Assembly: GCA_964462185.1 (NCBI GenBank) | Contig: CAYWWV010000005.1 | Location: 11,139 to 64,002 of the forward strand | From: an uncultured Candidatus Bathyarchaeia archaeon | Lineage (GTDB): Archaea > Thermoproteota > Bathyarchaeia > TCS64 | Reading direction: 5' to 3' | DNA: 52,864 bases | Shown here: in pieces, positions 44,907 to 50,923 of the stretch | Layout: the number at the start of each line of letters is the position of its first letter | Position numbering within the stretch: the first letter of the stretch is position 1 | Notes under the pieces: model-generated | Seen by the model: the letters and a program-made list of their open reading frames with translations, nothing else | What the model was told of the DNA's origin: nothing | Databases searched by the model: none | Program-made: the position numbers and the translations under genes

Positions 44907-47267
44907 CTACTCTCCAAGCTCCTCCAGGAGCTGGAGGCGGGTCTCCTCATCCAAGGGGCCCTCCCCCTCCACGATGTCGTGGAAGGTTTTGAAGACCCTC
45001 TCCAGCTTCCTCCAGTCGGGGACGTAGACACGGCTAAACCAAACCCGGCTGCTGTCCACATCCAGGTCCTCCAGGTCCCAGCGATACTCGTCGATCCTCT
45101 CCTCGCTGATGACGTGGGCCTCCCCGTAGGGCCCCTCGTGGGCGGGGGCCTCCAGCGCCATGACGCCGTCGGCGCCGTGGGCGAAGGCGTAGACCAGGTG
45201 CTCCTTCTTAAGCCTGGCTAGGCTGGGGAGCCTGATGACCCTTATGCTGCTGGGGTAGGTGAGGCGGGCCAGCCCCGCCAGGTCCACGGCGGTGTAGGCC
45301 ACCTCGGCCTCCACGAAGGCGATGATCTTGATCTCCGACTGGCTTTTCTCTAGCATCCCCTTGATCTGGGCCTTGATCTGGGCCTCCGTCATCCCCTGTT
45401 GGTCCAGGGCGTCCTCGGGGCACGCGGGTATACAGGCGCCGCATCCAGTGCAGGTCACCTCGTTGATCCTGGGCAACCCCCCCTCCAGGGTGATGGCGTT
45501 CTCGGGGCACACCTCCACACACTCCCCACACCCGGTGCACGCCTCAGCATCAGCCAAGTAGGCCTTGTTGGGTTCGATCACCCTTTCCCCGCTGAGGAAG
45601 TTGACCACCTTCATGGCGGCGCCCTCGGCCTCGGCGGTGGTGGACTGGATGTCCTTGGGGCCTAAAACCACGCCGGCGGCGAATACGCCGTCGCGCTTGG
45701 TGGCCATGGGGTCCAGCTTGGGGTGGCGCTCCAATATGAACTGGTCCTCGTCTGCGGGGACCCTCAGGCTCTCAGCCAGCTTCAAGGCATCCTCCCCGCA
45801 CACAATGGGCGGGGCCAACACCACCAGGTCCGAGTGGTACTCCAAGACCCGGTTGAGCATCATGTCCTCACCCCGCACCAGGACCCGACCACCGTCTGGC
45901 ACCACCTCGGTCACCTTCCCCTTCACGAAGACAGCCCCCTTCTCCTGGGCCGCCCGGTAGAACTCCTCGTACCTCCTCCCAGGGGCCCTAATGTCGATGT
46001 AGTGGATGACCACCTCCACCCCTCGATCCCTCAAGAGCTGCGCCTGTTTGAGGCTGTAGAGGCAGCAGACCCGGCTACAGTAAGGCCTACCCACCTCGGT
46101 GTCCCTGCTCCCCGCGCAAAGCACATAGGTGACCCTCTTCGCCTCCCTCTCGGTTCCAGGAACCACTATTCGGCTCCCCGTGGGGCCGTTCACGTCGAGT
46201 ATCCTCTCCATCTCCAGGCTGGTCACCACGTTGGGCATCTGCTTGTACCCGTACTGGGGGAGCCCCGAGAGGTCGTATAGCTCGAACCCCGTGGCCAGTA
46301 TGATGGCCCCAGCCCTCAACTCCACCACCCTCCCAGGGTCGTCCAGGTCTATGGCCTCCGCGGGGCACACCCGTGTGCAGGCCCCACACCTGAGGCAGGC
46401 CTCGAAGTCGATGGTGTATATGCTGGGAACGGCCTGGGGGAAGGGGCGGTATATGGCCGTGCGCTCCCCCAGCCCCTCGTTGAACTCGTCGGGGGCCCTG
46501 GCGGGGCAGACCCTGCTGCAAGCACCACACCCAATGCATTTCTCGGGGTCCACCCCCCGGGGCTTGACGTGGACCTTGACGTGGAAGTCCCCGGGGGTCC
46601 CAGAGACCTCTTGGACCTCGCTGTAGGTTAGGAGGTTGATGTTGGGGCTCTGACTCAGCTCGGCCATCTTGGGGGTGAGGATGCACTGGCTGCAATCCAG
46701 GGTGGGGAAGACCTTGGGGTACTGGATCATGTGCCCCCCCACGCTTGGCCGCTTCTCCACCAGGTGGACCTTGAGGCCGTACTCGCTCAGACGGAGGCTG
46801 GCCGTAATCCCGGCCACCCCCCCGCCTATGACCACCACCTCGGGCACCACCTCCATGGAGCCCTCCTCCAGGGGCACCGACTCCAAGCTCCGCTGGACAG
46901 CCCCCCGGATCAGGTCCAGGGCCTTCTCGGTGGCCCCCTCGTGGTCGTCCTTGTGGACCCAGCTACACTGCTCCCTGATGTTCACCATCTCCAGGAAGCC
47001 TTGGTTGAGGCCCTCCTCCTCCAGGTTGCTCCGGAAGGTGGTTTGATGCATCTTGGGGGTGCAGCAGGCTAATATCACCCTGTCCAGCCCCTGCTCGCGC
47101 ACCGCGCGCCTAATCTGGTCCACGCTGGGCTTGCTGCAGAGGTACCGCTCCACCGTCACCAAATCCACCTCGGGGCCCAGCTCCTCCGCCACCCGCTGCG
47201 TGTCCACTACGTCGCCGATGTTCCCCCCGCACTCGCAGACCCAGACGCCTACCCTTGGTTTAGACAT
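44907..47267 (-). CDS. hdrA: HdrA-like FAD/FeS flavoprotein fused to a C-terminal MvhD (FlpD)-like domain that lacks all cluster cysteines
   Basis: The 786-aa ORF has an N-terminal VWVCECGGNIG...ACCTP...CSW domain, a VVVIGGGVAGITAS FAD fold and four CxxCxxCxxxCP motifs. The last 141 aa align with MvhD, but FCCNWC becomes FVEAEV, MCSG becomes LPSL, and GGCHLGDCHY becomes LEAPAHEGPY. Confidence 0.8.
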   Translation of the reverse strand: MSKPRVGVWVCECGGNIGDVVDTQRVAEELGPEVDLVTVERYLCSKPSVDQIRRAVREQGLDRVILACCTPKMHQTTFRSNLEEEGLNQGFLEMVNIREQCSWVHKDDHEGATEKALDLIRGAVQRSLESVPLEEGSMEVVPEVVVIGGGVAGITASLRLSEYGLKVHLVEKRPSVGGHMIQYPKVFPTLDCSQCILTPKMAELSQSPNINLLTYSEVQEVSGTPGDFHVKVHVKPRGVDPEKCIGCGACSRVCPARAPDEFNEGLGERTAIYRPFPQAVPSIYTIDFEACLRCGACTRVCPAEAIDLDDPGRVVELRAGAIILATGFELYDLSGLPQYGYKQMPNVVTSLEMERILDVNGPTGSRIVVPGTEREAKRVTYVLCAGSRDTEVGRPYCSRVCCLYSLKQAQLLRDRGVEVVIHYIDIRAPGRRYEEFYRAAQEKGAVFVKGKVTEVVPDGGRVLVRGEDMMLNRVLEYHSDLVVLAPPIVCGEDALKLAESLRVPADEDQFILERHPKLDPMATKRDGVFAAGVVLGPKDIQSTTAEAEGAAMKVVNFLSGERVIEPNKAYLADAEACTGCGECVEVCPENAITLEGGLPRINEVTCTGCGACIPACPEDALDQQGMTEAQIKAQIKGMLEKSQSEIKIIAFVEAEVAYTAVDLAGLARLTYPSSIRVIRLPSLARLKKEHLVYAFAHGADGVMALEAPAHEGPYGEAHVISEERIDEYRWDLEDLDVDSSRVWFSRVYVPDWRKLERVFKTFHDIVEGEGPLDEETRLQLLEELGE

Positions 47268-47276
47268 ATCCCCAAC

Positions 47277-49607: not shown

Positions 49608-50510
49608 CTAACCCTCCAATAGCCCCCGCTCCTCCAATAGTGGTGTGGGGTCGGGTGTGTTGGGGGAGAACCCTGCCTCCCCTGGGCCCAGACCGAAGGC
49701 TAGGGCCATGAGTTGTGTAAAGTAGATTACAGGTATGGGTTGGAACCCTGGGTGGCGCCTGGCGATGCGGTCCTGCATCCTGCCCAGGTTGTACTCGCAG
49801 AGGGGGCAGGCGGTCACCAGCAGCTCGGCCCCCATCTCCTGGGCTTGGGATAGTATGCGGTGAGCCAGCTCTGAGACTGTTTCAGGCATGTGGACCGTCT
49901 GGTAGCTGCCGCAGCACTTTTGCTTGTAGGGGAAGTCCACCACCTCCCCGCCCAGGGCTTGGACCATGTTCTCCATGATGGTGGGGTTATCGGTGTCATC
50001 CAGCCCCACGCCCCGGGGCCTCAGTAGGAGGCACCCATAGTAGGGCGCCACCCTCAACCCCTCCAAGGGCTTCTTGACCGCCTCCCTCACTCGCTGCCAC
50101 CCCAACTCCCTTAGAACCTCCAAGAGGTGCACCACTTTGACCCGCCCCTGGTACTGGTGTTCCTCCTTGGTCATTATCTCCACGATTTTCTCCCGCCTCT
50201 CCTCGTCCTCCTGGAAGACGGAGTTAGCCCTCTTCAAGGTGTTGTAGCACATGGCGCAGAGGGTTACCAGGCGGTCGTCATCCACCAGGCCCTCCCCCTT
50301 CATCTCCTGAGCCCTAAGGAGGTTTCGGATGGGCGCCAACTGGTGCATCACATCGTCTGTGGCTAGGCTGTGAACCGTGCCGCAACAAGTCCAGCGCTGG
50401 AGCTCCACCAATTCCAGCCCCAGGGCCCCCGCCACCAGGTGGGCCGAGTCCTCGAAGCCCTTGGCCTGGTCCTTTAGGGTGCACCCCGGATAGTAGGCCA
50501 GGCGAATCAT
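49608..50510 (-). CDS. hdrB: HdrB-like protein with two CCG domains (also comparable to SdhE or the TfrB C-terminal half)
   Basis: YYPGCTL...WTCCGT and YYGCLL...KCCGS...ACPLC. Confidence 0.8.
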   Translation of the reverse strand: MIRLAYYPGCTLKDQAKGFEDSAHLVAGALGLELVELQRWTCCGTVHSLATDDVMHQLAPIRNLLRAQEMKGEGLVDDDRLVTLCAMCYNTLKRANSVFQEDEERREKIVEIMTKEEHQYQGRVKVVHLLEVLRELGWQRVREAVKKPLEGLRVAPYYGCLLLRPRGVGLDDTDNPTIMENMVQALGGEVVDFPYKQKCCGSYQTVHMPETVSELAHRILSQAQEMGAELLVTACPLCEYNLGRMQDRIARRHPGFQPIPVIYFTQLMALAFGLGPGEAGFSPNTPDPTPLLEERGLLEG

Positions 50511-50923
50511 GCCGTCAGCTTCCTCTGGTTGCTGATGAGGGCTATTTGAGGCAGAGTCCTAAGCTCTTCGGGGCTCAGCTCGTCCAGGCTCACCCGGTTG
50601 TACTTCCGCCTCAAAACCAGTTGCCTGAGGGCCTCCATGACGTTGGCCACATCGATGCCTCGTGGGCAGCGGACCTCGCAGCTGAAGCAAGTCATACAGG
50701 TCCAGATGGTGGTGGACTCCAACACCTCCTCCAGCCCCAGCTGGGCCATGCGAATCACCTTGCTGGGTAGAAGATCCATCTCCTGGGTCATGGGGCAGCC
50801 CCCACTACAGGCACCACACTGGAAACACAGGTCCAGGTTCTCCCCGCTTAGCTCCTCCACCCTTTCCTTGAAAGAACGCTGGTCGGGGTTGAACCCTAGC
50901 TGCTGGCTCTTGAAGGTTAGCAT
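50507..50923 (-). CDS. hdrC: HdrC-like 2x[4Fe-4S] ferredoxin-domain protein
   Basis: CFQCGACSGGCP and CMTCFSCEVRCPRGI. It overlaps hdrB by 4 nt. Confidence 0.8.
   Translation of the reverse strand: MLTFKSQQLGFNPDQRSFKERVEELSGENLDLCFQCGACSGGCPMTQEMDLLPSKVIRMAQLGLEEVLESTTIWTCMTCFSCEVRCPRGIDVANVMEALRQLVLRRKYNRVSLDELSPEELRTLPQIALISNQRKLTA

Follow-up and report, generated by a model that had tools for sequence, protein, structure and literature searches.

A five-gene cluster of Bathyarchaeia predicted to encode a soluble, Hdr-coupled fumarate reductase

Gene organization of the cluster

We analyzed a 52.9-kb stretch of DNA (52,864 nt, referred to below as the window) from contig CAYWWV010000005.1 of a Bathyarchaeia archaeon, and within it a cluster of five minus-strand genes in which components resembling heterodisulfide reductase (Hdr) are encoded together with an iron-sulfur (Fe-S) protein and a flavoprotein of the fumarate reductase type. 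A scan for open reading frames (ORFs) gave the order hdrC-like gene (50507..50923; 138 amino acids (aa), Fer4 dicluster), hdrB-like gene (49608..50510; 300 aa, two CCG domains), FrdB/SdhB-like Fe-S subunit (48922..49605; 227 aa, a [2Fe-2S] motif and two 4-Cys [4Fe-4S] motifs), FrdA-like flavoprotein (47277..48929; 550 aa, FAD_binding_2 at residues 97-480) and hdrA fused to an MvhD-like domain (44907..47267; 786 aa, HdrA at residues 1-642 and FlpD at residues 648-767). The genes are tightly packed, with a 4-nt overlap between hdrC and hdrB, a 2-nt gap between hdrB and the Fe-S gene, an 8-nt overlap between the Fe-S and flavoprotein genes and a 9-nt gap between the flavoprotein gene and hdrA. 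A Shine-Dalgarno-like element, GGTTGGGG, precedes hdrA, which starts 9 nt past the flavoprotein stop. Since this spacer, GGTTGGGGAT, is itself Shine-Dalgarno-like and only 9 nt long, there is no room for a separate hdrA promoter, and separate transcription of hdrA is unlikely on this sequence basis. Inspection of the 98-bp divergent region between hdrC and the fumarase genes (50924..51021) revealed an A/T-rich TATA-like element ∼22-35 nt 5' of the hdrC ATG, a putative promoter in a region common to both transcription units; a scan for sigma-70 promoters and intrinsic terminators was uninformative, as these are bacterial models and the host is an archaeon.

The cluster is flanked downstream by a gene for NAD(P)-malic enzyme (43515..44852, minus strand; Pfam malic and Malic_M) and upstream by divergent plus-strand genes for a class I (Fe-S) fumarate hydratase, i.e. 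the beta subunit (51022..51621) followed directly by the alpha subunit (51624..52490), with Fumerase_C/Fumerase domains and matches to NCBIfam PRK06043 and PRK06246 (both subunits together). An earlier note, made from the sequence alone, had described the five packed ORFs and their junctions, quoted motifs in their products and named both neighbors; the ORF scan reproduced the former, all of the motifs are present, and Pfam and NCBIfam agreed on the neighbors. That note had also reported the lack of a hydrogenase, a formate dehydrogenase and a membrane anchor. Pfam scans of the operon and the other large ORFs of the window likewise found no hydrogenase or formate dehydrogenase, none of the five operon proteins has a transmembrane-like segment, and the ORF scan showed no SdhF-sized small ORF within the operon. 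Pfam scans of the window also found no electron-donor module of the FlxABCD, MvhAG or FrhB-like kinds, and no gene for a thiol cofactor or DsrC-like protein was seen among the annotated ORFs near the cluster.

The flavoprotein defines a distinct subfamily

Alignment of the flavoprotein to Escherichia coli FrdA, NadB and Shewanella Fcc3 showed that all of the fumarate-site residues are kept (H327, T343, E344, R347, R368, H441 and R475, equivalent to H232, T244, E245, R248, R287, H355 and R390 of FrdA), R368 occupying the position of the proton-donor Arg. The His to which flavin adenine dinucleotide (FAD) is covalently attached (His44 of E. coli FrdA) is replaced by Asn136, and the FAD of the window flavoprotein is therefore predicted to be bound non-covalently. 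A non-covalent flavin is the state of enzymes that reduce fumarate rather than oxidize succinate.

The earlier description of this protein as SdhA/FrdA-like held for the fumarate site but not for its overall architecture. Pfam found no match to the C-terminal helical domain Succ_DH_flav_C, and ∼50 residues follow the FAD domain, compared with 106-186 in full-length NadB, Sdh, Frd and TfrA proteins and 150-186 in the Sdh/Frd clade alone. At the other end the protein has a conserved extension of ∼95 residues (1-96), which is confined to its own clade. This clade was separate from the NadB clade and from the Sdh/Frd/TfrA superclade in a neighbor-joining tree, a rough method. In a 92-sequence alignment, the column of the NadB-specific Glu121 (E. 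coli numbering) contained Glu in 37 of 37 NadB-clade sequences, including E. coli NadB, and in no member of the window clade, where the window flavoprotein has Gly208; together with the kept fumarate-site residues, this bore out the expectation that the flavoprotein would fall outside the NadB clade.

Among curated NCBIfam models the flavoprotein scored best against TfrA (NF004900), with 326.6 bits against a cutoff of 718; its scores for NadB (272 bits, cutoff 453) and Sdh/Frd (271 bits) were nearly equal. A bona fide TfrA, P0175, reached 765 bits, above the cutoff, and sits in the Sdh/Frd superclade. AlphaFold2 run on the single sequence gave an unusable model, with a predicted local distance difference test score (pLDDT) of 32, and a model based on an 87-sequence alignment was used instead (pLDDT 94.4, predicted template modeling score 0.93), in which the N-terminal extension was also confident. 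The top fold matches in Foldseek were the soluble fumarate reductase Fcc3 and E. coli FrdA (template modeling score 0.70).

These results rule out a TfrA orthologue (327 versus 718 bits, no C-terminal domain, another clade), NadB (Gly at the Glu121 column and clade placement) and a classical SdhA/FrdA (Asn136 in place of the covalent-FAD His, no C-terminal helical domain). We conclude from the alignments and the model that the flavoprotein is predicted to be of the fumarate reductase type and to represent a distinct, uncharacterized subfamily. At one other locus (L041:5340-9039) three extra partial flavoprotein matches (∼136-309, ∼361-546) lie downstream of an intact gene and may represent copies that arose by duplication or have decayed.

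The Fe-S subunit and flavoprotein form an autonomous pair

The Fe-S protein had been described as SdhB-like, a likeness that simple searches did not bring out. Pfam detected a weak Fer2 domain and a Fer4 dicluster, with no match to Fer2_3, and a plain phmmer search of the PDB returned generic ferredoxin domains only and no solved SdhB or FrdB. However, comparison of the family profile with E. coli FrdB by hhalign gave a probability of 90.4% (E = 1.4e-6), with an alignment spanning the four 2Fe-2S Cys and both downstream cluster motifs. Twelve Cys are invariant across the family. The third cluster motif has four Cys and is hence of the 4Fe-4S type, in contrast to the 3Fe-4S pattern of SdhB/FrdB. 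The C-terminal stretch is conserved but matches no domain, and neither Pfam nor the family alignment showed a CCG domain in this subunit.

We compared the surroundings of the flavoprotein gene in a sample of 80 metagenomic loci, many of them short, of which 33 have at least 7 kb upstream of the gene. The Fe-S gene adjoins the flavoprotein gene in 77 of the 80, and in one locus (L025:5250-7433) the two are naturally fused, with the Fe-S protein at the N-terminus of a 727-aa flavoprotein (P0122), a Rosetta-stone link. The pair also occurs without Hdr. Marine Gammaproteobacteria (L023/L024:7366-10891) encode a trio of Fe-S protein, flavoprotein and a NuoF-like (flavin mononucleotide/NADH) protein, and the marine metagenome-assembled genome (MAG) GCA_902567285.1 (L026:6001-8357) has a bare pair, the flavoprotein of which falls in the same 90%-identity cluster as a protein of Prochlorococcus sp. 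MIT 1201. These Hdr-free members belong to the N-extended clade, with 42-44% identity to the window flavoprotein, and resemble soluble fumarate reductases that use NADH, perhaps in organisms exposed to oxygen.

The earlier note had read the Fe-S and HdrB-like proteins as a split TfrB. On the TfrB model (NF004898, cutoff 385 bits) they scored 37 and 50.5 bits, respectively. As the Fe-S and flavoprotein genes are adjacent in nearly every locus, can be fused and are found without Hdr, "split TfrB" is not the best description; moreover, in the common bacterial clusters described below the pair adjoins FlxA. The Fe-S protein and flavoprotein are an autonomous two-gene module, i.e. one that may be NuoF-partnered, bare or fused, and HdrB belongs with the Hdr module.

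The Hdr subunits are intact but the MvhD-like domain lacks cysteines

The HdrC-like protein has Fer4_8/Fer4_17 domains with two CxxCxxCxxxCP motifs; it is short, and its best NCBIfam match, HdrC, scored 83 bits, under the 160-bit cutoff. The HdrB-like protein contains PF02754 (CCG) twice, i.e. the ligands of two non-cubane [4Fe-4S] clusters, and aligned end to end with the HdrB chain 7bkb_B (140 bits), matching 10 of 10 cluster Cys. Its NCBIfam scores for HdrB (170.7 bits) and for SdhE of methylmenaquinol:fumarate reductase (MFR; 164.7 bits, cutoff 500) were both under cutoff. HdrA matched the HdrA chain 8rvu_a with 640 bits over residues 1-642, which is full-length HdrA, and has the FAD domain, the N-terminal cluster Cys, the inserted and C-terminal ferredoxin domains and four CxxCxxCxxxCP motifs. 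Its best NCBIfam match was HdrA2, aligned over the full length with 828 bits, under the 1100-bit cutoff.

The fusion of HdrA to an MvhD-like domain (44967..45326, minus strand; residues 648-767, FlpD 85 bits), as first proposed, was thus recovered, but the fused domain has no Cys at all, every Cys column of the MvhD chain 5odc_D being substituted. Cys are likewise missing from this domain in eight Bathyarchaeia orthologues, whereas stand-alone MvhD/FlxD proteins of donor-containing clusters have 5-9; in three loci from other lineages with a fused domain (L030, L032 and L050), the last 150 HdrA residues contain 1-2. The Cys-free domain is otherwise well conserved in sequence. Without Cys it cannot hold a [2Fe-2S] cluster or relay electrons, and it is probably a scaffold rather than a [2Fe-2S] wire.

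One Bathyarchaeia HdrA orthologue (L003:9662-13426) is 1254 aa long. An intein was considered and ruled out by Pfam, which identified a GltD/NfnB-like module (Fer4_20, Pyr_redox_2 and NAD_binding_8, residues ∼291-680) just after the inserted ferredoxin domain of HdrA. The same insertion is present in L046, L056, L059 and L063, and its domain content points to NAD(P)H as a likely redox partner of these HdrA variants.

The pair is linked to Hdr genes through differing donor modules

The window flavoprotein has hundreds of homologues with 73-82% identity, and those with a named source are from Bathyarchaeota, Bathyarchaeia or Thermoproteota. The order hdrC-hdrB-FeS-flavoprotein-hdrA is kept in 11 Bathyarchaeia loci (L001-L007, L013, L018, L028 and L029). 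Where a contig of this group reaches far enough, the malic enzyme gene comes next; it lies downstream of hdrA in L005, L006, L007, L013, L017, L029 and L050 and is present in L008, and the divergent fumBA genes are kept in L001, L003, L006, L007, L013, L018 and L028. Fumarase neighbors 18 of the 80 metagenomic loci as well as most Bathyarchaeia loci, and genes for fumarase, malic enzyme and 2-oxoacid:ferredoxin oxidoreductase recur among these clusters.

Among the 33 well-flanked metagenomic loci, HdrA was found in 29, HdrB/C in 27 and Flx proteins in 19, with three having none of these. Linkage to Hdr extends to MAGs of Bipolaricaulota, Anaerolineae, Armatimonadota and Thermoplasmata and to many unclassified metagenome contigs. 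In the more distant relatives (51-69% identity) the Fe-S/flavoprotein pair is tied to Hdr via differing donor modules. Most bacterial contigs have the arrangement hdrB-hdrC-hdrA-mvhD-flxC-flxB-flxA-FeS-flavoprotein, with or without fumAB, so that a seven-gene Flx-Hdr set precedes the pair. MvhD and an FrhB-like protein are encoded immediately 5' of the pair in eight loci, and an MvhAG donor module is present in three; in the Bipolaricaulota locus L008, hdrA-mvhD-mvhG-mvhA is followed by hdrC-hdrB-FeS-flavoprotein-kor-fumAB-malic enzyme. L003 and four metagenomic loci have the GltD/NfnB-like NAD(P)H module within HdrA. A fused MvhD-like domain poor in Cys, combined with the lack of a donor module, characterizes the window cluster, three further lineages and those eight Bathyarchaeia orthologues in which hdrA is complete; five metagenomic loci are of the donor-less type with a fused MvhD-like domain. 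Across the sampled loci, MvhD contains Cys where a donor module is present, whereas the fused domain without Cys occurs where there is none.

The pair was also present on human-gut-labeled metagenome contigs (L062, L083, L089, L093, L098 and L104-L106). The longer of these (L062, L089 and L098) carry the full hdrBCA-mvhD-flx set upstream, and fumAB lies downstream in L083, L089 and L105. No membrane anchor was identified in the related clusters by the tblastn and Pfam queries used, which did not include a search for SdhC/D/F homologues.

Relationship to known systems

The possibility had been raised that the architecture of the cluster is undescribed. This no longer stands for its gene content, as PMC7282089 describes for Pseudoclostridium thermosuccinogenes a "succinate operon" that combines two fumarate reductase genes with fumarase and a set of seven Flx-Hdr genes, proposed (citing a 2019 preprint of Koendjbiharie and van Kranenburg) to couple fumarate reduction to ferredoxin reduction. 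The bacterial relatives found here have the same content of seven plus two genes, the families being matched by gene content only. The same bifurcation proposal has been made for tubeworm symbionts and Thioflavicoccus, in which tfrAB and korABCD are interspersed with flxABCD-hdrABC (PMC6315080, PMC11636981), and surveys of archaea have noted Tfr syntenic to an Hdr-like complex (PMC9635834) and SdhA co-located with HdrA2B2C2 (PMC9723716). The symbiont genes, given as tfrAB homologues, may encode a flavoprotein from a family other than that of the window. In contrast to the Flx systems of P. thermosuccinogenes and the symbionts, the window lacks the FlxABCD NADH module, has a Cys-free MvhD as part of HdrA and shows the gene order hdrC-hdrB-FeS-flavoprotein-hdrA. 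The Flx-Hdr-linked fumarate reductase systems are all predictions. A search of the accessible literature found no description of the Bathyarchaeia operon, nor phrases such as "bifurcating fumarate reductase". We therefore regard the window cluster as a new archaeal form, minimal and lacking a donor module, within a class that is predicted and still unproven.

Several better-characterized enzymes each share part of this architecture. The HdrA, HdrB and HdrC proteins are homologous to those of the methanogen MvhADG-HdrABC complex (5ODC, 8RVU), with the checked cofactor ligands kept, and the Bipolaricaulota relatives have the whole Mvh-Hdr set beside the pair. However, the window has no hydrogenase, the MvhD-like cluster is lost, a fumarate reductase is appended and the proposed terminal acceptor is fumarate rather than the heterodisulfide of coenzymes M and B (CoM-S-S-CoB). 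The HdrA2B2C2 enzyme of Methanosarcina acetivorans was reported by Yan and colleagues (mBio, 2017) to use reduced coenzyme F420 (F420H2); it lacks a donor subunit and has an HdrA::MvhD fusion. The window HdrA is also MvhD-fused without a dedicated donor subunit, and HdrA2 is its best NCBIfam match; its score is nevertheless under the model's cutoff, the substrate of HdrA2B2C2 is the heterodisulfide, and use of F420H2 by the window enzyme would be by analogy. The methylene-tetrahydrofolate reductase MetFV-HdrCBA-MvhD of Moorella thermoacetica is reportedly, from work by Mock and colleagues in 2014, encoded and purified together, with its bifurcation partner unknown. As an HdrABC-MvhD unit serving a reductase that does not act on a disulfide it is the closest purified precedent, although its catalytic module is MetFV rather than an FrdAB-like pair.

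Among soluble fumarate reductases, Methanothermobacter TfrAB also has CCG-type clusters feeding an SdhB-like chain and a flavoprotein, but TfrA, a member of the Sdh/Frd superclade, retains the C-terminal domain, TfrB combines its parts in one polypeptide, and the window has HdrC and HdrA in addition. The soluble flavocytochrome c3 of Shewanella and the NADH-dependent fumarate reductase of Hydrogenobacter thermophilus resemble the window flavoprotein in having non-covalent FAD and no C-terminal helical domain. Fcc3 is its best structural match, although electrons reach Fcc3 from a heme domain and not from an Fe-S subunit. A further point of likeness is the NuoF-like NADH module that accompanies the gammaproteobacterial members of the window clade.

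Proposed function and alternative explanations

Sequence evidence for a soluble fumarate reductase fed by Hdr comes from the linkage of the pair to Hdr genes, from cofactor ligands that are intact and from the residues of the fumarate site. From these observations, together with gene content and operon packing, we infer a physical complex, an order for its electron wire, bifurcation and a donor. We propose that the five gene products form one soluble Hdr-coupled complex that reduces fumarate to succinate, bifurcating electrons from a diffusible two-electron donor at HdrA, a proposal to which we give an even chance of being correct. As the operon encodes one HdrB and the Fe-S subunit carries no CCG domain, the simplest wire would run from the FAD of HdrA through the [4Fe-4S] clusters of HdrC, the non-cubane clusters of HdrB and the FrdB-like subunit (one 2Fe-2S and two 4Fe-4S clusters) to the non-covalent FAD of the flavoprotein and so to fumarate. 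HdrA would receive electron pairs from the diffusible donor and split each pair, sending one electron downhill to fumarate and the other uphill to ferredoxin via its ferredoxin domains. The most likely donor would be F420H2, reacting directly with HdrA by analogy with HdrA2B2C2; NAD(P)H is also possible, and would be the probable donor in orthologues with the GltD-like insertion. As a high-potential acceptor, fumarate (+33 mV) is superior to the heterodisulfide, and we estimate from standard potentials that with a donor at or below about -230 mV the co-reduction of ferredoxin would be exergonic. With malic enzyme and fumarase the complex would complete a branch from pyruvate to malate, fumarate and succinate, which could yield reduced ferredoxin.

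A more specific form of this proposal is possible, although we advance it only tentatively: that in Bathyarchaeia, and in the few lineages with a fused Cys-poor domain, a five-subunit cytoplasmic enzyme uses fumarate in place of the heterodisulfide as bifurcation acceptor, with the HdrB clusters acting purely as a relay without a thiol substrate and F420H2 or NAD(P)H reacting directly at HdrA.

The idea that fumarate is the acceptor of Hdr-based bifurcation was the core of the earlier note, which had named four observations that would count against it: a flavoprotein within a non-fumarate clade such as that of NadB, a gene order not conserved elsewhere, orthologous clusters with a membrane anchor, and separate transcription of hdrA. 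The results above went the other way on each (for the anchor, within the tblastn and Pfam queries used), and the core idea stood; bifurcation itself is still something that we infer. Several findings weigh against bifurcation or against the proposed wire. In the literature we found no report of biochemistry on a cluster of this kind, and PMC7282089 treats the coupling as an assumption. No donor gene was detected by Pfam scans in the operon or elsewhere in the window. The Cys-free MvhD-like domain breaks the canonical entry wire, and HdrA might simply take electrons from reduced ferredoxin. The neighbor of the pair in Flx-type clusters is flxA and not hdrB, so adjacency gives no support to a contact between HdrB and the Fe-S subunit. 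Related pairs with a NuoF-like partner have no Hdr, and therefore bifurcation is not intrinsic to the pair. Finally, in the complete Bathyarchaeota chromosome CP070640.1 (L017:6331-13416) the flavoprotein, hdrA and malic enzyme genes are kept but there is no hdrC or hdrB upstream, and the Fe-S gene is truncated to its C-terminal half (residues 101-222), which could reflect either decay of the cluster or different wiring.

The main rival explanation is that the same complex does not bifurcate and that HdrA is a mere entry point, in which case the enzyme would be a plain soluble fumarate reductase, dependent on ferredoxin (or on F420H2 or NAD(P)H), in a biosynthetic reductive branch of the tricarboxylic acid cycle. 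Given the dead MvhD-like domain and the NuoF-type relatives this is a serious possibility, if on the whole an unlikely one. The lack of Cys in the MvhD-like domain and of a donor subunit would fit reduced ferredoxin docking on the HdrA ferredoxin domains as the sole input, the NuoF-like module serves related pairs without any Hdr, and the GltD-like modules beside the inserted ferredoxin domain could mark the input site. However, a complete HdrA with HdrBC is more elaborate than downhill transfer alone would call for. Relatives have retained entire Mvh-Hdr or Flx-Hdr sets, modules for which bifurcation is known or has been proposed, and the waste of ∼90 kJ/mol (estimated from standard potentials) would be unexpected in energy-limited anaerobes.

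Alternatively, coupling could be mediated by thiols rather than by a continuous Fe-S wire, with HdrABC reducing some disulfide (a low-molecular-weight heterodisulfide or a DsrC-like protein) and the thiols being re-oxidized for fumarate reduction as in TfrAB. HdrB does retain all of the ligands of the disulfide-reducing non-cubane clusters, TfrA was the top curated model for the flavoprotein, Flx-Hdr is stated in PMC7282089 to pass electrons to ferredoxin "and thiols", and a route through a DsrC-like protein was considered in PMC11636981. Nevertheless, the flavoprotein is not a TfrA orthologue and, as noted above, the annotated ORFs around the cluster include none for a thiol cofactor or a DsrC-like protein. 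Moreover, CCG domains are found in just one protein per operon, HdrB, and are missing from the Fe-S subunit. This leaves no separate, second site for thiol oxidation and makes the explanation improbable.

It is more improbable still that the flavoprotein acts on another substrate, such as L-aspartate (as NadB does) or an enoate like urocanate, acrylate or mesaconate, and that the link to fumarate is coincidental. NadB models scored about as high as Sdh/Frd models and the clade is distinct from every characterized enzyme, but the Glu121 column has Gly in the window and the whole clade, conservation extends to every His and Arg that binds the dicarboxylate and to the proton-donor Arg, NadB has no Fe-S partner, and fumarase recurs beside these loci. 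A type E (SdhABEF-like) succinate:quinone oxidoreductase or MFR, with the HdrB-like protein as membrane attachment, can be rejected as hardly credible, because although that protein scored nearly as high on the MFR SdhE model as on HdrB, the score is far under cutoff, the operon has no SdhF-sized ORF and no subunit has a hydrophobic segment, the covalent-FAD His needed for succinate oxidation is missing, the operon also encodes HdrC and HdrA, and the modules found in relatives, Mvh or Flx, are soluble.

Other features of the window

Elsewhere in the window, 37324-39369 (plus strand) encodes a fused 2-oxoacid:ferredoxin oxidoreductase-like protein (POR_N, TPP_C and Fer4), 21949-22989 (minus strand) a malate/L-lactate dehydrogenase of the Ldh_2 family, and 6013-9325 (minus strand) a LeuA/homocitrate-synthase-like protein with large and small subunits of the aconitase family. 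A thiamine pyrophosphate (TPP) riboswitch (Rfam RF00059, 63 bits; 9889-9998, minus strand) lies directly 5' of a gene for a ThiT/YuaJ-type thiamine transporter (9380-9898, minus strand). Positions 1-6000 have a G+C content of 48-49%, compared with 60-65% in the remaining window, and encode an Asp/Glu racemase, a DUF364/DUF4213 protein and a ZIP metal transporter; this segment may be acquired DNA or a compositionally distinct island.

Implications for Bathyarchaeia and other anaerobes

Bathyarchaeia are among the most abundant archaea in anoxic sediments and, to our knowledge, how they conserve energy is largely unknown. If fumarate does drive ferredoxin reduction through HdrA in these organisms, the reductive branch from pyruvate to succinate would conserve energy without a membrane, i.e. 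it would be a membrane-free "fumarate respiration" giving reduced ferredoxin, and the low-potential electrons could feed 2-oxoacid synthases or the Wood-Ljungdahl pathway. It would also mean that the non-cubane clusters of HdrB can serve as a relay and not as a disulfide-reducing site.

The prediction spans archaea, autotrophs using the reductive tricarboxylic acid cycle and gut fermenters, with the pair present in human-gut Flx-Hdr contigs and a matching operon in the succinate producer P. thermosuccinogenes; the gut clusters may be relevant to how succinate is produced there. To a specialist the finding will not come as a great surprise, but it offers a widespread and compact system in which to address the prediction of a bifurcating fumarate reductase. 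Reconstitution looks simplest for the Bathyarchaeia form, which has five genes and lacks both a donor module and a hydrogenase.

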